A DNA stretch of 64,000 nt from assembly GCF_036365525.1 (NCBI RefSeq), contig NC_090416.1, positions 15,162,945 to 15,226,944 of the forward strand. Direction: 5' to 3'. The translations under genes were made by a program, and so were the position numbers. Within the stretch, counting starts at the first letter, position 1; each line of letters begins with the position of its first letter. This document shows positions 1,935-41,800 of the stretch, in pieces. The notes beneath the pieces are model-generated. The model did not search any database. It had not been told where the DNA came from and saw only the letters and a program-made list of their open reading frames with translations. This DNA is from Heterodontus francisci (lineage: Eukaryota).

Positions 1935-2931
1935 GATAATGTTGGCAGTCCTCAAAGTGGAAAAGTCACCAGCTCCAGATGGGATTCATCCTCATTTGCT
2001 GAGGGAAGTAAGGGTGGACATGACGGAGGCTCTGGTCACAATCTTCCAATTGCCCTTGAAAATAACTGGAGGCAAATCTTACACCGCGGTTTAAAAAAAG
2101 AGATAAACCCAGCAACTACAGGCCAGTGACCCTAATGTCGTTTCGCGGGGAAACGTTTCGAAAAAATAACAATCTAGGACAAAATGTATTGGCATTTGGA
2201 AATGTACGGGCTAGTAGATGAAAGTCAGCACGGATTTTATGTTTGAGTAACTTGATTGACTTCTTCGATGAAGACAGAGGATGATGTGGGCAGTGTATGG
2301 TGTTGTGTATGAGGACTTTTAAAAGACATTTGACAAGGTATCACATTATAGACTTAATGGTAAATTAAAGGATTAAAGGGACAGTGACAGCATGGTTAGA
2401 AAGTCAGAAAGGAACAGAAAGCAGAGAATGGTGGTGAATGGTTGTTTCCTCGCCTGAAGGGAGGTATACAGTGGTGTTCCCCAGGGATTGATATGTTTCA
2501 TCTACATTAATGACCTTGAATTGGATACACAGGGAATAACTTTTTAGATGACATAAAACTTGGAAATATTGTCAATAGCGAGACAGACAGTAATAAACAT
2601 CAGGAAGATAGAGACACACTGGTGAAATAGACACATGGCAGATGAAAATTAACAAGTTGAGATCCGTGCCTTTATTGTCAGAAATGTGAAGTACAAAATG
2701 AAAGAAGTTGTGCTAAACCTTTATAAAACACTGTTTAGGCCTCAACTGGAGTTCTGTGTTCAATTCTGGGGATGGCAATTTCGGAAGGACGTGAAGGTCT
2801 TGGAGGGCGTGTGGAGGAGATTTACTGGAATGGTCCCAGGGATGAGGGATTTCAGTTAATGTGGAGAGACTGGAGAAGCTGGGATTGTTCTCATCACAGC
2901 AGAAAAGGTTAAGGGAAGATAGAATTGAGGG
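1935..2931 (+). mobile_element. Decayed CR1-clade LINE ORF2 (RT) fragment, 3' end deleted
   Basis: KSPAPDGIHPHLLREV motif; degenerate QHGF, DF.K.FDKV and SGVPQG-like stretches with many stops and frameshifts. Confidence 0.85.
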
Positions 2932-2948
2932 GTTAGGGTTAGGGTTAG
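2930..2948 (+). repeat. Short interstitial telomeric repeat (GGGTTA)3G at a deletion junction
   Basis: GGGTTAGGGTTAGGGTTAG; the homologous site in unit 3 has ~1.17 kb of other sequence instead. Confidence 0.85.
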
Positions 2949-3074
2949 AGAGTGCATGTCCATTAACCCTCTTTGTAAATGATATTCGCCTGGCCTCTCC
3001 CTCAGTTCTTGTGGGTATGATTTTAAATTCATAGTGACTCACCAATCGCTGCAAACATCTCTGAAGAGAGAGAG

Positions 3075-4719: not shown

Positions 4720-7700
4720 GTAGGGAACAGTATAGAGAGGGGGATTGACACATCTTCCCTGCAGCAAAGAGCGAGAATCCCAAAGGCTGTGTGGCCTGCC
4801 CGGTGCCAGCGTTCAGGACATCTGCTCAGGGCTGGAGAGGAACTTACAGTGGGAGGAGGAGGATCCAGTTGTCGTGGTCCATGTAGGCACCAATGACATA
4901 GGCAGGACCAAGACGTTCTGCAAAGTCAGTATGAGGAGCTCGGCACCAAATTAAGAAGCAGAATCTCAAAGGTAATAATCTCTGGATTATTACCTGAGAC
5001 ACATACAAATTGGAGTAGGGCAAATCAGATTGGAGAAATGAATGTGTGTGGTCGAAGTAGGTTCTGATTCATTGGACACGGGCTAGGGAAAGTGGTGGCT
5101 GTCCCGTTGGGACAGTCCACTCCTGAACCATTTCCGGGACCAGTGTTCTAGCGAGTCTTATAACTGGGGAAGTAGAGAGGGGTTTAAAATAAATAGTGGG
5201 GTAAAGACATCAAATTCGGAATTGTGTGGTCAATAAAAGAGTAGAGACAAGGCAAGAAAGAAAGACATAAATATGGGATAAGATAAACTGACTGTGACAG
5301 GAAGGGACAGTGAGTACAAATCTAAGAGTAAATCAGCAGACAAGGCCAGAGGTAACAAAAATAACAAAAGAAAACAAAATTCTGCATCTGAATGCAGGTA
5401 GCATTCAAACAAAACAGATGAACTGATGACGCAAATACAAATAAATACGGAGGATCTGATAGCCATTACAGAGACATGGCTGCAACATGACATAGATTGG
5501 GATCTGAATATTGAAGGGTACCTGACATTCTAAGAAGGGCAGGAAGCTCGGAAAAGGTGGAGGGGTGGCCCTGTTAATTAATGATGATATTAGCAGAACA
5601 GAGAGGAATGATCTGTGTTCAGGAATTCGGGATGTAGAAGCGGTTTGGATCGAGATGAGAAATAATAAAGGCAAGAAGTTTACTTGTGGAAGTGGTGTGC
5701 AGGCTCCCTAACAGAACCTACTTGGTAGGATTGAATATAAGGGGAAAAAAATGGGAGCTTGTCAGAAAGGTACAGCAATCATCATGGGGGATTCTAATCA
5801 ATATATAGACTGGGAGAATCAGATGGGCAAAGGTAGCCTCGATGAGGAGTTCATGGAATGTTTTCAGGATAGTTTCTGACAACAGCACGTTCTGGAGCCA
5901 ACCAGAGAGCCAGCTACACTGGATCTGCGATTGTGTAACGTGATCGGATCAATTTATGACCTCATAGTGAAGGCATGACTAGGCAGCAGTAATCATAATA
6001 GGTGTATGTTTTACATTTAATTTGAGGGAGAGAAGAGTGGGTCTAAGACGAGCACTTTAAACTTCAATAAGGGCATGAAAGCAGAGTTAGCAAAAGTGAA
6101 CTGAGAAAGTAGGTTAAGGGATGGGTCAATAGAGATGCAGTGGCAGATATTTGAGGGGATATTTCAGAATACACAGCTTAGATACATTCCAACAAGAAAG
6201 AAAAATTCCAATAACCATTCGTGGTTAACTAAAAAAGTTCAAGATAGTACCAAACTTAAAGAAAAGCCATATAATTGTGAAAAGATGGGTGGCAGTTCAG
6301 AAGATTGGACACAATATAAAAACACAGCAAAGAATTACTAAAAGATTAATAAGGAGGGAGAAATTCGACTGCGAAAACAGCTGGCTAGAAATATTCTATA
6401 GCAAGTAAGTCTGGTGATTAATAATGGAAAAATAAGGAGATGGCAGATGAATTGAACAGGAATTTTGCATCAATATCCACCTTAGAGGATTCAAGTGGCA
6501 TCCCAGAAATAGCTGTAAATCAGGAAATGGAAGGGAGAGAGGAACTCAAGAAAATTACAATCACCAGAGAAGTGGTACTGAGCAAATTGTTGGAGCTGCA
6601 GACTGACAAGTCTCTGGGTCTTGATGGACTTCATCCTAGAGTCTTAAAAGAAGTGGCTAGTGAGATAGTTGATGCGTTGGATTTAATTTTCCAAAACTCC
6701 CTAGATTTGGACTGGGTTCCATTTGATTGTAAAATGGCCAATGTAACTGCTTTATTCAAAAAGGGAGGGAGACAGAAAGCAGAAAACTACAGGTCCGTTA
6801 GCTTAACATCTGTCATAGAGAAAATGTTAGAAGCGATTATTAAAGACGTTATAGTAGGGCATTTAGTAAATTCAAGGTAATCAGGCATAATAGCTTTGCG
6901 AAAGGGAAATCATGTTTAACCAGTTTATTGGAGTCAATTCTTTGCGGGAGTTGCATGTGCTGCGGATAAAGGGGATGTATTGTTCTTAGATTTCCTGAAG
7001 GCGTCTGATAAGGTGCCATTTCAAAGGTTATTGCAGAAAATAAAAGCTCATCGTGTAAGGGGTAACATTTTGTCATGGATAGAAGTGTAGTTGAAGAAGT
7101 GTAGTTAGCTAAAACGGAACTGAGAGTAAGCAAAATGGGTCATTTTCTGATTGGCAAGATGTAATGAATGGTGGACCACAAGAATCAGTTCTGGGGCCCT
7201 AAATTTTTGCAATTTATACAATTAAGTTGGATAAAGGGGCTGAAGGTATTGTTGATAAATTTGCTGATGACACAAAGATAGGTGGGAACATAAGCTGTGA
7301 AGTGGGAAGAAGGAACTACTAAGGGATATAGATAGGTTACGTGAGTGGGCAAAAATCTGGAAAATCGGGTATGATGTGGGAAAATGGAAAATTGTCCATT
7401 TTGGCAGGAAAAATAAAAAAATAAGCATATTATCTAAATGGTGAGAGATTGCAGAGGGATCTGTGTGTCCTCGTGCATGAATCACAAATGGTTAGTATGC
7501 AGGTACAGCAAGCAATTTGGAAAGCTATTCGAATTTTGTTGTTTATTGCAAAGGAAATTGAATAAAAAGTAGGGAGTTCATGCCGCAGTTATACAAGGCA
7601 TTGTTGAGACCAGATCTGACGTACTGTGTATAGTTTTAGTTTCCTTATATAAGGGAGGGTGTAACTGCATTGGAAGCAGTTCAGCGAAGGTTTACTAGTC

Positions 7701-9978: not shown

Positions 9979-10307
9979 TCAGTCGGAACAAGCGGTGGAG
10001 CTGATGGTTTTGAGGAGAGGTGAGCTCAGAGAGCCGTGGTCCACACTGCAGGTATAGCTGGAGCCCTTATTCCAGGCAGTGGCGGGGACTCTCAGGTAAC
10101 TGCTCAGGCTGTAGGTTTGATCACTGTCCGTGGACACGGTGCCTGTGGTCACCCCGCTGTCTGTCTCTTTATCATCCACTCTCCAGAGAACCCGCACGAA
10201 ACCCGGCTTAAAGTGGCTCACCAGGCAGGACAGAGTAGCCCATCCGGAGTCTATTTCTTCTGAGGAAGGAGGGAGCAGAAGAACTGATGGTTTCCGATCC
10301 TCACTAC
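9979..10307 (-). CDS. Ig light-chain constant exon, cluster A (type I / sigma-cart-like)
   Basis: CAG acceptor at 10310-10308, phase 1. Reads (S)SEDRKPSVLLLPPSSEEIDSGWATLSCLVSHFKPGFVRVLWRVDD...YSLSSYL...YTCSVDHGSLSSPLLKTISSTACSD*: a C1-set domain with both Cys, the Trp and the C-terminal interchain Cys. Confidence 0.97.
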
Positions 10308-10579
10308 CTGTTTTTGAGGGAAAAGAAAATTCATTAATATATAACCCATTCGCAGTGGGACACTCTGAGCTGAAATCTGATTGGATGCTGCATTAACTCT
10401 CCTTATTCACATTAACTTTAAACTGAATTACTGATCCATTCTGTAGTTCCAATAAATTCTTAGGTCTCTCGTTCCTGAGCTCATCTGCCAATTCATTTTC
10501 CTCGAGTACAACAGTGACGATAGTTCAAAATTACTTCATTTGGATCCGAGGACCTTAAAACTGCTGCATAAATGACCGA

Positions 10580-12674: not shown

Positions 12675-12713
12675 CACAGTGCAGCATTTTAATGGGACGG
12701 GTCACCTAAAACC
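12675..12713 (+). other. 23-bp-spacer RSS of J-A
   Basis: CACAGTG (12675-12681), 23 bp, then CCTAAAACC (7/9 match to ACAAAAACC). Confidence 0.92.
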
Positions 12714-13028
12714 CAGGCTGGGAAGAAAGAGGGGAAAATATTAATAATCTGTCCTTTATCACATTCCCTTTCACATTCTGTCTTTCACAGGGGCCGGAAT
12801 GCTGACAGCCTGCAGAAAGATTTTCACATATCAGTGAGGAAACCCTGAGAATATCAGTGTTTACCTACCCAGCTAATAGTCCAAATATTGGGGAAAATCC
12901 AAATAAACCCATGGAATTCCAGTGACATTTTCCTCAAGTTACATAAGGAATATTTCTGAAACTCATTCCACAGTCTCAGGCAGGAATATTTCAGTAGCTG
13001 TTGAAATTCTGAGTGGTTCTGTTGATAC

Positions 13029-13056
13029 AGTTTTTGTATTGCCCTGTCTCACTGTG
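13029..13056 (-). other. 12-bp-spacer RSS of V-A
   Basis: CACAGTG-AGACAGGGCAAT-ACAAAAACT on the minus strand. Confidence 0.95.
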
Positions 13057-13384
13057 TATGTCGCTGCTGAGCTATCGTAGGCAGCACAGTAATAGACGGC
13101 GGAGTCTTCCGGTTCCAAGCTGCTGATGGTCAGAATGTGACTGTTACTGGAGGTGTCTCTGGAAGGTTTAAAACGGTCCGTGAAGCCGGTGCCTCGATAG
13201 ATGTCATCATCTGGTTGGTGCTCTAACACCCACACCGGAGCCTCCCCGGGTCTCTGTCGGTACCAGTACATGTAGTAACTGCCCACATTGCCGTTCTGCA
13301 TCGCACACTTTAACTCGGAGGTCTCACCGGTGGAGACTGGGTCGGAAATTGGGGTCTGATTGAGGACAGGAACCGCCAGGACAC
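13057..13384 (-). CDS. Ig light-chain V exon, cluster A (germline, unrearranged)
   Basis: AG acceptor at 13386-13385. Reads (G)VLAVPVLNQTPISDPVSTGETSELKC...WYRQRPG...EDSAVYYCAAYDSSAAT; open frame with canonical Cys/Trp/Cys. Confidence 0.97.
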
Positions 13385-13526
13385 CTTCAACACAAAACAC
13401 AAGAGAGAGAAAAACACATTCAGTTTATTGGAGTAAATAGGTCATTCATACATCAATAAACATGGCTGTAAAACCGGCCCATTCTCGGTATTTAACGGCT
13501 AATCTGTGCCTAAAACAATCTCTCAC

Positions 13527-16384: not shown

Positions 16385-16403
16385 GGGTTAGGGTTAGGGT
16401 TAG
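16385..16403 (+). repeat. Interstitial telomeric repeat (GGGTTA)3G, unit 2 copy
   Basis: Identical to 2930-2948. Confidence 0.85.
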
Positions 16404-26485: not shown

Positions 26486-26512
26486 AGTTTTTGTATTGCC
26501 TGTCTCACTGTG
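26486..26512 (-). other. RSS of V-B with an 11-bp spacer
   Basis: CACAGTG-AGACAGGCAAT-ACAAAAACT; one G fewer than the V-A spacer. Confidence 0.9.
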
Positions 26513-28859: not shown

Positions 28860-30200
28860 ATAAGGTTGGCAGTCCTCAAAGTGGAAAAGTCACCAGCTCC
28901 GGATGGGATTCATCCTCAATTGCTGAGGGAAGTAAGGGTGGACATGACGGAGGCTCTGGTCACAATCCTCCAATGGCCCTTGAAAATAACTGGAGGCAAA
29001 TCTTACACCGCTGTTTAAAGAAAAGAGAGAGAGATAAACCCAGCAACCTACAGGCCAGTGACCCTAATGTCATTGCTGGGGAAACGTTTAGAGGCCATAA
29101 TAATCTGGGGCAAAATTAATTGACATTTGGAAATATGCGGGCAAGTAGTCAGCACGGATTTTATGTTTGAGAAACCTGATCGAGTTTTTTCATGAAGTAA
29201 GAGAGAGGATTGATGAGGCCAGAGTGCATGCTGCTGTGCATGAGGACATTTAAAAGGCATTTGACAAAATATCACATAATAGACTTAATGGTAAATTGTA
29301 GGATTAAAGGGACAGTGGCAGCATGGATAGAAAGTCAGAAAGGAACAGAAATCAGAGAGTGGTGGTGAATGGTTGTTTCTTAGCCTGAAGGGAGGTATAC
29401 AGTGGTGTTCCCCTGGGATCGGTATGTTTCATCACATCAATGACCTAAAATTGGATACACAGGGAATAACTTTTCAGATGATATAAAACTTGGAAATATA
29501 GTCAATGATGAGACAGACAATCTTAAACTTCAAGAAGACAAAGACAGACTGGTGAAATAGACACGTGGCAGATGAAATCTAACAGGTTGAGATCCTTGCC
29601 TTTGTTGTCAGAGAAGTCGACGACAAAAGGAAGGAAGTTATGCTAAACCTTTATAGAACACTGTTTAGGCCTCAACTGGAGTTCTGTGTTCAATTCTGGG
29701 GACGGCAATTTCGGTAAGACATGAAGGCCTTGGAGGGCGTGTGGAGGAGATTTACTGGAATGGTCTCAGGGGTGAGGGAATTCAGTTAATGTGGTGAGAC
29801 TGGAGAAGCAGGGATTGTTCTCTTTCGAGCAGAGAAGGTTGAGGGGAGAGAGAATAGAGGGCTTCAAAGTCATGACGGGTTTTGACAGATAAAGAAAATC
29901 TGTCTGCAGTAACAGACAACTGGTATCCAGAGAACTAGATGTAAGGTGAATGACACAAGAACCAGAGGTGGAAAGAGGATCTTTTATGTTACCCAGTGTG
30001 CTGTTGTGATCTGCAATGCACAACCTGAAAGGGAGGTGGAGGTGGAATCAAAAGCAACAGTGGAAACAGAATTGGATAAATACTTGAAGAAAAAATAATA
30101 CAGGGCTACGGGGAAAGAGCAGGGACAGGAGATTATTTGATAAATCTGCCAAAGAGTCAGCATGGACTCTTTTCTGTGCCATATCATTCTATGATCCTAT
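28860..30200 (+). mobile_element. CR1-clade LINE fragment with intact 3' tail
   Basis: Homologous to 1935-2931 but continues to a CATTCTATGATCCTATG CR1-type terminal repeat (~30185-30201). Confidence 0.8.
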
Positions 30201-30347
30201 GCTTCTATTACATCAATCCCAGTCACGATCAGCAGGGTGTCCTCCTCGCGCAAATTTTGGGATAAATAAACAATCTGGCCAGGAGCAGTGGCATCACCAT
30301 ATCCAGCTCAATGACTCTCAGAGTTCCTTGTCATATGATACATGGTC

Positions 30348-30597
30348 AACAGTGCCACCTACTGTAGAGGGAATACCTGGGAACAGTGCCACCTACTGTC
30401 GAGGTAGCTCCTGCGAACAGTGCCACCTCCTGTCTAGGGAATACCTGGTAACAGTGCCACCTACTGTCGAGGTAGCACCTGCGAACAGTGCCACCAACTG
30501 TCGAGGGAATACCTGCGAACAGTGCCACCTACTGTAGAGGGAATACCTGGGAACAGTGCCACCTACTGTCGTGGGAGTACGTGGGAACAGTGCCAAC
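30348..30597 (+). repeat. Mini-array of ~7.3 copies of the 34-bp satellite
   Basis: AACAGTGCC recurs at 30348, 30382, 30416, 30450, 30484, 30518, 30552 and 30586. Confidence 0.95.
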
Positions 30598-32789
30598 TGC
30601 TCGTTTTATTTATGTCTGAGCTCTCCAAGGTTCGCAGGAGTCTATTCAACCTCTATGTGCTGCACGATATCAGAGTTATGTTAATTAGCGCATCAATTCC
30701 TCATCATGTATCTCCCACCCACTGCTTCAGAGATTCGATATCAGCACTGATGGGCCCACTCTTATCCAGGCACGACGTCCACACTCAGTTCCTGGCTTTG
30801 GACTGGAGATGTTGTACGAGATGATTTTGTGGATTTAACAGTGAATGTGGCACCGTCATTGCACCCTGCACCTGATGACGTCCGGTGGCATTCGGCCCAT
30901 TGCCTACGTGCCATCTCTGTGCAACAGCTCTCCCCTTAGTCCCCATTCCCCAACCTCTTCAAATTTTCACCTTTCAAATAATTACCCATTTCCTTTTTCA
31001 AACCTATTCTGGATTCTGTTTCTGCTGAGACAGTGCATGACCATTAACCCTCTGTGTAAGCGATATTCGCCTGGCCTCTCTCTCAGTTCTTGTCGGGATG
31101 ATCTTAAGTTAATAGTGACTCATCAACTGGTGCAAACATCTCTGAAGAGAGAGAGATTGATGATAAAAAGCTCGGTGGAAAAGTAAGCTGTGAGGAGGAG
31201 ATAGAGAGGCTGTAAAGGAGATAGACTGGTTAAGTGAGTGGTTAGGAAAGTCGCAGATGGTATATAAAGTGGGAAAATGTGAAATTATCCACGATGGTAA
31301 GAAGAATAGAAAAGTAGAATATTTTTTAAATGGCGAGGGACTGGGAAATGTTGGTATTCCAAGGGATTTGGGTGTCCTTGTACCCAAATCACAGACAGTT
31401 AACATGCAGGTACAACAAGCAATGAGGAAATCAAATGGTATTGTTAGCCTTCATTGCAATGGAGGTGGAGTAGAAGATCAAGGACATCTTTCTGCAATTC
31501 TACAGAGCTTTAGTGAGCCCACACCTGGAGAACTGTGTACAGGTTTGGTCTCCATACCTAAGGAAGGACATAATTGCATTCGAGGGAGTAGAATGAAGGT
31601 TCACGAGATTGATTCCTGGGGTGAAAGGCTTGTCTTATGAGCAGAGATTGAGTAGAATGGGTCAATATTCTCGAGAGTTTAGCAGAATGAGAGATGATCA
31701 CATTGAAACATATAAAATTAACAGGGTAGATGTTAAGAGGCTGTTTTCCCCTGGCTGTAGAGTCTAGAACTAGGGGGTCACAGTCTCAGGATAAGGGCTC
31801 GGCCATTTAGGGCTGAGATGAGAAGACATTTCTTCACTCAGAGGGTTGTGAATCTTTCGAATTCTATACCCTAGAAAGCTGTGGGATGCTCAGTCATTGA
31901 GTATATTCAACACAGAGATCAATATATTAATGGATGCTGAGGGAGTCAGGGATATGGGAAACGGGCGGGAAAGTGGAATTGAGGCAGAACATCAGCCATG
32001 ATTGTATTAAATGTGGAAGAGGCTCGAGGGGCCGAATGTCCTATTATTTATTCTTATGTGTGAAAGTTAAGAAGTGGGTGTGAAATCCAGAAAAGAGCTT
32101 TATTGATTTAAAAGCTACTGTAGGACATCAAACATTTATTCATCCAGTCAAATCCACAATGTTGATGATTCACATGGCTGAATAGCCAGATTCCAGACTG
32201 CATCTGAGAACGGTACTGAAAGCACCTCAGCTCAGGCCCGCGTCATCTGTCTACAGGGGACCTGGGCGGTGTTCTGAAAGCCTTATTTTAGATCCTGATA
32301 CCAAAATCGATGCTGTTTTTGTCTTGTTTGTGATGTGGTGCAGGTGGTGTGATCACTCGCTGCAGGGGGTGGGAGAGGAGCCCCGGGGAGGAACCGAAAC
32401 CTCCCTGTTCACTGTCTGATAAGCAGCAGAGAGCAGCAGCATCTGGGCCCAGTTCCCCTGCTCTGAAACAAACAGAAACAGGACGGAAATCTCAGAAACA
32501 CCGTTAAACGCTCACATTCTTGGACACGTCACACATTTGCAACAACACAACCCATTATCCGGACTGGGCCCCTCAGAAGAACTGAACTGAACTCCTGCTT
32601 TAAAACACTCCTTTAATCGTAAATCTTTCACCGAGCTTTTGGTCACCTTTCCCAATATCTCCTTATCTGGCTCAGTGGCAAATGTTGTCCTGTGAAACGC
32701 CTTGGGACGTTTTACTAAGTTAAAGGTGCTATGTAAATGCAAGGGTGACACATGTGCTCTCAGCACTGACCCACACAAGGTTAAGAAAG

Positions 32790-38837: not shown

Positions 38838-41800
38838 CTGTAGAGGGAGCACCTGGGAACTGTGCCATCGACTGTAGAGGGGGCATTTTGGAACAGTGCT
38901 AGCTTATGTAGAGGGGGCACCTGGGAGCACCGCGACCGACTGTAGTAGGAGAACCAGGCAACAGCGCCACCTACAGTAAAGGGAGGACCTGGGAACAGTG
39001 CCACCTAATGGAGAGTGAGCACCTGGGAACAGTGCCACCTATTGAACAGGGAGCACCTGGGAACAGTGCCGCCTGCTGCAGCAGGAACAGCTGGGAACAG
39101 TGCTACCGACTGTAGTGGGAGCACGTGGGAACAGCGCTACCTACTGCAGTGGGAGCACCTTGCAACAGCGCCGTCCACTGCAGAGGGAAGACCTGGGAAC
39201 AGTGCCACCGAATGGAGAGGGAGCATCTGGGAACAGTGCCACCTGCTGTAGCGGGAACAGCTGGAAACAGTGAAACCTACTGTAGAGGGCGCACCTGGGA
39301 ACAGTGCCACCTACTGTAGAGGTGGCATCTGGGAACAGTGCCAACTAATGCACAGGGGGCCTCTGGGATCAGTGCCACCTAATGTAGAGGGAGAACCTGG
39401 GAACAGTGCCACCTAATGCAGAGTGAGCACCTGGGAACAGTGCCACCTAATGAACAGGGAGCACCTGGGAACAGTGCTGCCTACTGTAGCAGGAACAGCT
39501 GGGACCGGTGCTACCTACTGTAGAGGGAGCACCTGGGAACACCGCAGCCCAATGCAGAGGGAGCACCTGGGAACAGGGCCACCTACAGTAGAGGGGGCAC
39601 CTGGGAACAGCTACCTACTGTAGTGAGAGCACCTTGTAACAGCGCCGCCTACTGCAGTGGGAGGACCTGGGAACAGTGCCACGTAATGGAGAGGGAGCAT
39701 CTGGGAACAGTGTCACCTGCTGTTCAGGGAGCGCCTGGGAACAGTGCCGCCTACTGCAGCGGGAACAGCTGGAAACAGTGCCACCTACTGTAGAGGGAGC
39801 ACCTGGGAACAGTGCCACTGACTGTCGAGGGGGCATCTGGGAACAGTGCTACCTAATGTAGAGTGGGCACCTGGGAACAGTGCCATTTATTACAGACGCG
39901 GCACCTGGGAACAGTGCCACCTAATGTAGAGTGGGCACCTGGGAACAGTGTCATTTATTACAGACGTGGCACCTGGGAATAGTGCCACCAAATGTAGAGA
40001 TGGCACCTGGGAACAGCGCCTCCTACTGTAATGGGAGTACCTTGGAACAGTGCCACCTACTGTAGAGGGGCATCTGGGAACAGTGCCACCTAATGCAGAG
40101 GGGGCATTTGGGAACAGTGCCACCTAATGTAGAGTGAGAACCTGGGAACAGTGCCAACTAATGGAGAGGCTGCATTTGGGAACAGTGCCACCGACTGTAG
40201 TGGGAGCACCTGGGAAAAGAACCGCCTAATGTAGCGGGAACAGCTGCGAACAGTGCCACCTACAGTGGAGGGAACACCTTGGAACGGCGCCACCTTCTGC
40301 AGAGGGAGCACCTGGGAACAGTGACACTTACTGTAGAGGGGGCATCTGGGAACAGTGCTACCTAATGTAGAGTGGGCACCTGGGAACAGTGCCATTTATT
40401 ACAGACGCGGCACCTGGGAATAGTGCCACCTAATGTAGAGTGGGCACCTGGGAACAGTGCCATTTATTACAGACGCGGCACCTGGGAATAGTGCCACCAA
40501 ATGTAGAGATGGCACCCGAGAACAGCGCCTCATACTGTAATGGGAGCACCTTGGAACAGTGCCACCTACTGTAGAAGGGCACCTGGGAACAGCGCCACCT
40601 ACTGTAGAGGGAGCACCTGGGAACAGCGCCACCTACTGTAGAGTGAGCACCTGGGAACAGTGCAACTGGGAACAGAGAAACCTAATGGAGAGTGAGCACC
40701 TGGGAACAGTGCCACCTACTGAACAGGGAGCACCTGGGAACACTGCCGCCTACTGTAGCAGGAACAGCTGGGAACAGTGCCACGCAATGTAGAGGGAATA
40801 CCTAGGAACAGCGCCACCTACTGTGGAGGGAGCACCTGGGAACAGCGCAGCCAAATGCAGAGGGAGCACCTGGGAACAGGGCCACCTACAGTAGAGGGGG
40901 CACCTGGGAACAGCGCTATCTACTGTCGTGAGAGCACCTTGTAACAGCGCCGCCTACTGCAGAGGGAGGACCTGGGAACAGTGCCACGTAATGGAGAGGG
41001 AGCATCTGGAAACAGTGCCACCTACTGTAGAGGGAGCACCTGGGAATAGTGCCACTTACTGTAGAGGGGCATCTGGGAACAGTGCTACCTAATGTAGAGT
41101 GGGCACCTGGGAACAGTGCCATTTATTACAGACGCGGCACCTGGGAACAGTGCCACCTAAAGTAGAGTGGGCACCTGGGAACAGTGCCATTTATTACAGA
41201 CGCGGCACCTGGGAATAGTGCCACCAAATGTAGAGATGGCACCTGGGAACAGCGCCTCCTACTGTAATGGGAGCACATGGGAACAGTGCAACTGGGAACA
41301 GTGCCACCTAATGGAGAGTGAGCACCTGGGAACAGTGACACTTACTGTAGAGGGGGCATCTGGGAACAGTGCTACCTAATGTAGAGTGGGCACCTGGGAA
41401 CAGTGCCATTTATTACAGAGGCGGCACCTGGGAATAGTGCCACCTAATGTAGAGTGGGCACCTGGGAACAGTGCCATTTATTACAGACGCGGCACCTGGG
41501 AATAGTGCCACCAAATGTAGAGATGGCACCCGGGAACAGCGCCTCATACTGTAATGGGAGCACCTTGGAACAGTGCCACCTACTGTAGAGGGGCATCTGG
41601 GAACAGTGCCACCAAATGCAGAGGGGGCATCTGGGAACAGTGCCACCTAATGTAGAGTGAGAACCTGGGAACAGTGCCAACTAATGGAGAGGGTGCATCT
41701 GGGAACAATGCCACCTACTGTAGTGGGAGCACCTGGGGAAAGAACCGCCTAATGTAGCGGGAACAGCTGCGAACAGTGCCACCTACAGTGGAGGGAACAC

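Follow-up and report, generated by a model that had tools for sequence, protein, structure and literature searches.

A telomeric repeat patch, probably added at a germline break, in an immunoglobulin light-chain array of a cartilaginous fish

Short interstitial telomeric sequences (ITS) have been catalogued in rodents and in the horse. In these catalogues, deletion is the commonest simple class (50% in rodents, 30% in horse), bases are in register with the telomeric repeat at about three quarters of the informative loci, the register amounts to 1-6 nt at the 3' end, and the empty state was sometimes taken from repeat copies (PMC2246262, PMC7215372). Among rodent pure-deletion loci, 64 of 65 lost no more than 86 bp and 1 of 65 lost more than 100 bp (PMC2246262 supplement). 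At rat RNO20p11, a 1,107-bp deletion is accompanied by 2 nt in register (PMC2246262, Table S5 row 50). The catalogue cut-off of four units is called arbitrary by its authors (PMC7215372); it is an operational rather than a mechanistic limit. Among cartilaginous fish, the catshark Scyliorhinus torazame is described as having two TERC-ITS loci (Sola et al. 2021, PMC8537989). Telomerase can add TTAGGG to broken ends through template pairing and acts at Cas9 breaks (bioRxiv 10.1101/2022.10.31.514589), and telomerase-dependent internal telomeric insertions are described in human cells (PMC5388398).

Here we describe a junction of this kind between immunoglobulin (Ig) light-chain clusters. The window, that is the whole 64,000-nucleotide stretch of DNA analysed (G000:C46:15162945-15226944 of a 6.0-Gb genome), consists of tandem ~13.45-kb units at positions 1-38838, and its remainder is a 34-bp satellite. 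Sequence comparison shows that about 1 kb of intergenic repeat DNA was replaced by 15-17 nt of telomeric repeat, which was probably added by telomerase to the left end of a germline double-strand break that was then probably end-joined to the right end; the repaired unit is now present in three tandem copies. The features of the junction-carrying units are as follows.

1-26911 (no strand): two of the three tandem ~13.45-kb junction-carrying units, period 13,455
2930-2948 (+): perfect 19-nt TTAGGG run of unit 1, read from the window sequence and spanned by contigs with 0 differences
16385-16403 (+): identical perfect 19-nt run of unit 2, read from the sequence
9982-10392 (-): Ig constant (C1-set) exon of unit 1 (Pfam PF07654, E 5e-22)
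12675-13424 (-): unrearranged V and J region of unit 1, with a V-set exon (Pfam PF07686, E 8.3e-15)

Each unit carries a V exon and a C exon on the minus strand. The V-J-C cluster layout is that of cartilaginous-fish light chains (PMC2193156). A signal scan placed the recombination signals of unit 1 at 13056 (-), with a 12-bp spacer, and at 12675 (+), with a 23-bp spacer, 380 bp apart. The V signal of unit 2, at 26512 (-), has an 11-bp spacer compared to 12 bp in unit 1, and the unit 2 V frame is about 80% identical to that of unit 1. A PDB search with the C exon returned generic Ig matches only, which do not type the chain; it may resemble type I/NS5 chains. An Rfam search over 1-39000 gave 0 matches. 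The junction lies about 7 kb 3' of the C exon, among repeats.

The two runs are the only (TTAGGG)2+ runs found by scanning the 64-kb window. Each comprises 3.2 telomeric units, and that of unit 2 is a duplicate of the unit 1 event. The site is non-terminal, at C46:15.15-15.18 Mb within a 22.06-Mb contig. An earlier note, made from the letters of the window, had laid out the sequences of units 1, 2 and 3 around the junction, and rereading the window confirmed them. It had counted 16 replaced nucleotides, which we revise: relative to unit 3 the non-ancestral core is 15 nt (2932-2946), with 15-19 nt gained according to the boundary chosen, as A 2947 matches unit 3 base 31028 and AG 2947-2948 fits both the telomeric repeat and the right flank. 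On the left side, GG 2930-2931 is ancestral and in register with the telomeric repeat. The note had placed the added repeat in register with a GGG. A register does exist, but the junction has four Gs, so as the sequence stands only GG, two of the three ancestral Gs, is in register. A 3-5 nt register is obtained only by assuming an extra G change, and the 4-nt register that the ancestral left end offered (AGGG) is unused as the sequence stands. Position 2932 is G at the junction and C, A and C in the three full paralogs, and position 2950 is G at the junction and C in 4/4 paralogs. At the other 706 flank sites compared, 43 substitutions fall on the junction lineage, and C>G is seen at 0/91 C sites. 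The two Gs therefore make both junction boundaries fuzzy, and the loss relative to unit 3 is accordingly given as 1,163-1,170 bp.

A 146-bp short-read contig crosses the junction with 0 differences in each of two runs (X1 and X2). The telomeric junction is thus real; X1 and X2 may derive from the sample used for the assembly; they rule out an artefact of assembly but do not count as independent individuals. Samples X14-X16, which bear the same species label, showed no depth over 2955-3065, and X5 and X10 yielded no matching contig. Contigs carrying the junction had depths of 28.4 versus 7.9-8.7 for most paralog contigs shown in one run, and 19.4 versus 2.9-8.1 in the other; this is about 3x, in rough agreement with three junction copies, and only a rough hint, as contig depth is not equal to copy number. 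Surveying paralogs and related species, a step that the earlier note had proposed, revealed a third identical junction 14 kb upstream of the window (G000:C46:15148963) and an undeleted right end in one contig of another species. The deletion was indeed duplicated, as the note had said, but in three assembled copies rather than two. Between units 1 and 2 there are 110 differences in all, none of them within the initial 5,087 bp. Against the upstream unit, unit 1 shows 13 differing sites up to position 6,506 of the unit and 0 over the remaining 6,949 bp. Unit 1 is therefore mosaic, combining the left part of unit 2 with the right part of the upstream unit, apart from one discordant site at 6506, as would be expected from unequal crossing-over. 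A 200-N gap (G000:C46:15160421-15160620), 2.3 kb upstream of the window, is bordered on both sides by sequence overlapping unit 1 at 100% (935 bp and 2,324 bp). Owing to this identity, three junction copies is a minimum reading, and the assembly may understate how many 13.45-kb Ig clusters there are. The gap and the mosaic make the exact copy number uncertain, and they are what would favour the view that the junction is an assembly artefact, or else that the segment found in unit 3 is a later insertion. We consider this pair of readings barely credible given the spanning contigs and, for a later insertion, the presence of the segment in several paralogs and of its right end in another species.

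To place the two states in order, we compared the junction with its undeleted counterparts, in which the following features were recognised.

29862-31027 (no strand): undeleted segment of unit 3 (1,166 bp), containing a CR1-like 3' end, a 34-bp minisatellite, unique DNA and part of a second dispersed repeat
29590-30208 (+): 3' part of the CR1-like element across the left break in unit 3; dispersed copies align over about 29590-30162, and 8-bp tail repeats lie at 30186-30208
2690-2931 (+): left remnant of the CR1-like element in unit 1, cut at the run, from dispersed copies and paralog alignment
30348-30595 (+): 34-bp minisatellite within the deleted segment, with 7.3 copies in unit 3 and 2 and 3 motif copies in other paralogs
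30889-31113 (no strand): second, older dispersed repeat across the right break; 3/13 dispersed copies align across 31027 at 66-68%

The segment is present at full length in three paralogs, with its right end in a fourth. Its length varies among them: unit 3 has 1,166 bp, an inverted cluster 945 bp and a cluster at C46:15.12 Mb 2,372 bp. The lengths differ by minisatellite copy number and by an extra ~1.27-kb repeat piece in the 15.12-Mb cluster. The most parsimonious loss is about 0.95-1.2 kb, so the figure of ~1167 bp in the earlier note holds against unit 3 and is specific to it. When the right end of the segment (421 bp) was used as a query, it was fully covered at four places, all at C46 15.03-15.25 Mb; the three junction copies matched in the flank only, and the 29 other matches of 36 were short dispersed-repeat hits. 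The contig from another species (organism C) came from 1/3 other-species runs and carries the right flank together with the undeleted continuation. None of the undeleted paralogs contained the telomeric run, nor did any of the dispersed CR1-like copies that were fetched. There was no target-site duplication at the breaks, the longest direct repeat nearby being 6 nt and off both junctions. Both ends of the unit 3 segment lie inside repeats, leaving no clean element ends. The note had named a TTAGGG run in undeleted paralogs or the LINE, and an inserted unit 3 segment with target-site duplications, as findings that would speak against it; neither was encountered. Since both breaks cut dispersed repeats and target-site duplications are lacking, the deleted state is, from these alignments, derived and the undeleted state ancestral.

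The claim that the unit 3 segment continues the CR1 element to its tail was likewise borne out, with dispersed copies crossing the left break and the 8-bp tail beyond it. The label CR1-like is tentative. Pfam found no family in two repeat-derived frames, so the label rests on the tail motif and the dispersed copies; the 8-bp tail motif co-occurs with CR1 in published work. The idea that unit 3 itself preserves the pre-repair state beside the repaired one needs qualification. The undeleted state is ancestral, but unit 3 is 10-12% diverged from the junction carriers near the junction, and the 15.12-Mb cluster is the sister of the carriers in 3/4 short trees (support 0.95, 0.81, 0.99). This indicates that unit 3 is an old paralog and not a direct ancestor.

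Some other origins of the breakpoints were considered and set aside. A retrotransposon insertion of the unit 3 segment was rejected for want of a target-site duplication and of ends outside repeats, and a microhomology deletion through the 6-nt repeat near both breaks would not yield the observed joint. A search for an inverted-repeat pair inside the deleted segment, as a trigger of the break, gave no match.

The surrounding array has further features of its own. A neighbouring cluster (G000:C46:15135827, L033) has a separate ~2.5-kb deletion, at about 29360-31904 in unit 3 coordinates and without a telomeric patch; it spans the same region as the junction deletion, making two independent losses of one spacer. 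The inverted light-chain cluster (G000:C46:15036313-15046120, L041 and L042) lies about 120 kb upstream and is closest to unit 3, at 5-7% divergence. The 34-bp satellite forms a ~47-kb array from window position 38838 through 64000 and onward to G000:C46:15248746 (L036-L038), beginning about 100 bp past the unit 3 C exon. Its repeat is the minisatellite of the deleted segment and the array ends in a paralog of that spot. The array seems to have grown enormously, within one cluster, from a seed of 2-8 copies. The DNA fetched to the right of the array showed no V exon.

To assess telomere specificity, exact runs were counted across the genome. The exact-phase 19-nt telomeric run has 2,191 occurrences, mostly in arrays, while five hexamers of the same composition gave 1, 0, 1, 1 and 0 exact 19-nt runs in 6 Gb. 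This indicates that the junction run is not due to chance. In the 19-nt class, 9/22 examined loci, drawn from among the first 100 listed, were isolated. The 20 runs of the 18- and 20-nt classes that stand as positional singletons on C1-C24 comprised 18 clearly isolated runs, one borderline case and one array. The three phase classes thus contain at least 27 isolated runs, and on C1-C24 the isolated loci number 10-11 (18-nt), 8 (19-nt) and 8 (20-nt). The ancestral left side was readable from a related repeat copy at 10 loci; using ungapped extension and repeat copies 70-97% alike, we found GGG in register at six, one base off at one and not in register at three.

Isolated runs with GGG in register: L102, L104, L113, L115, L122, L123

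At L104, L105, L106, L116 and L127 the run joins apparently unrelated flanks, as at this junction. Isolated 18-20-nt runs that break dispersed repeats or join unrelated flanks are found at these five loci and at L073, L102, L113, L115, L122, L123 and L126. Clusters of telomere-like runs, near or away from contig ends, occur at C16:99.99-100.01, C20:6.80-6.84, C25:8.44-8.67 and C28:55.60-55.70 Mb, and the clusters examined (C16) are degenerate telomere-like satellite arrays. It is possible, although we would not expect it on present evidence, that there is an uncatalogued class of two-to-three-unit patches at deletion or rearrangement joints, primed on GGG and numbering in the hundreds by extrapolation, in which telomerase serves as a routine filler in germline end joining, at a rate and by sequence rules readable from repeat families.

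The same counts bear on whether the patch arose locally, either from a deletion that formed one GGGTTA unit which then slipped, or from repeated copying by polymerase theta of an inverted 7-mer near the break.

2964-2970 (-): telomere-like 7-nt word, a candidate local template, located 18 bp to the right of the insert (31045-31051 in unit 3)

If G 2932 was already there before the break, blunt joining of 2934 and 2947 would give exactly one unit, and the observed sequence would be three tandem copies of it. That join requires a C>G change, however, and none was seen at the 91 C sites in the flanks. The 7-mer is uncommon, occurring in 529 of 24,812 nearby 60-bp windows (2.1%), and iterative local templating is described for polymerase theta. 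Nonetheless every round of polymerase theta would prime on 1 bp, and the 7-mer, which is the longest local match to the insert, covers 7/15 nt. Slippage has no reason to favour TTAGGG, as control hexamers reach 0-1 runs per genome, whereas C1-C24 by themselves contain 8 isolated telomeric runs of this class; the class is thus not accounted for by a chance hexamer that slipped. A local origin is consequently a quite unlikely account of this junction.

We next consider the source of the telomeric sequence. The genome has a single telomerase RNA gene (G000:C11:91376083-91376620 (-), L109; RF00024, 173 bits, E 1.3e-41) with an 11-nt template near the RNA 5' end. A copy of the template is identical to both 2932-2942 and 2938-2948, and the last base of the run falls at the template boundary. 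Among the isolated runs of the three classes on C1-C24 there was no excess of template-boundary endings, so the matching end here may be due to chance (about 1 in 6). No telomerase-RNA sequence outside the template was present at this junction, which is therefore not a TERC-ITS. Across 29 further loci, all matches outside the template stayed below 11 nt (13-nt threshold for part of the loci); the template match was extended by one T at 5/9 loci, which is not beyond chance. Lacking such RNA sequence, the action of telomerase is not separable from copying of telomeric DNA. The same break may have been patched in trans by a repair polymerase that copied or captured telomeric or telomere-like satellite DNA. 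The genome arrays hold thousands of potential donors, the in-register GGG fits annealing to telomeric DNA equally well, and neither RNA-specific sequence nor a bias towards template-boundary endings was seen. Error-prone synthesis is also suggested by the two G-for-C differences next to the junction. On the other hand, the junction run is perfect while the arrays sampled are degenerate, and internal telomeric insertion in human cells required telomerase activity (PMC5388398). We regard the copied patch as the less probable source, although it is a more serious contender than a local origin.

Because the locus is an array of V-J-C light-chain clusters, RAG might have cut a cryptic signal there in germ cells, with the break patched afterwards. 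For another type of light chain, published work describes RAG-like joining in shark germ cells (PMC2193156). Our signal scan found no CAC-starting heptamer at either break. The nearest weak signal, at 31056 (-), has at least 4 mismatches and would cut about 29 bp off, removing DNA that is retained. The genuine signals of unit 1, at 13056 and 12675, are undamaged and some 10 kb distant. A RAG-initiated break is therefore very improbable.

The best reading of the junction is a short ITS, and the earlier note's view of a germline break healed with telomeric sequence is still the one best suited to the derived state and the telomere specificity. Under this reading, a double-strand break with loss of ends would have occurred in the germline between Ig light-chain clusters. 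The terminal GG of the left end may then have paired with the telomerase RNA template, and about three cycles of addition up to the template boundary would have given 5+6+6 = 17 nt. The extended left end would have been joined to the right end through the shared AG, and the repaired unit presumably was duplicated later by unequal crossing-over. No one- or two-unit intermediate was seen among the three carriers and four empty paralogs of the array. The junction is most likely a neutral scar; its position between repeats, about 7 kb from the C exon, indicates no functional effect. It serves as a marker by which three recently duplicated clusters can be grouped.

The literature searches, which did not extend to subscription papers, returned no account of this locus. 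The kind of junction is already published and common, and it has the mechanistic features of short ITS at breaks (Nergadze et al. 2007; Santagostino et al. 2020): a perfect TTAGGG run, a known empty site, a flanking deletion and in-register bases. Rat RNO20p11 is a near-identical precedent in both deletion size and 2-nt register. In contrast to the catalogued loci, the run here has about three units and falls below the four-unit cut-off, so the catalogues would miss it; its deletion size lies in the rare tail of the rodent loci; and its empty state comes from paralogs of one cluster array in which the scar was later triplicated. Like TERC-ITS, it places telomeric hexamers at a repaired break in a cartilaginous fish, but it has no retrotranscribed fragment of telomerase RNA and so lacks the direct proof of telomerase that TERC-ITS offer. 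Unlike neotelomere formation or chromosome healing, addition ended after about three units and the distal end was rejoined, with no terminal loss. The deletion, short insert and 2-nt microhomology resemble polymerase theta templated insertions and synthesis-dependent microhomology-mediated end joining (SD-MMEJ), whereas a local match exists for only 7/15 inserted nt. The locus thus contributes one case, with clear polarity, of telomeric sequence inserted where a germline break was repaired, within an Ig light-chain array of a cartilaginous fish. A more useful lead lies in the abundance of runs below the four-unit cut-off in this genome: they greatly outnumber those of control hexamers, and an ancestral GGG is often in register with them. 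Such sub-threshold runs could reveal how often telomerase fills germline breaks in slowly evolving vertebrates.
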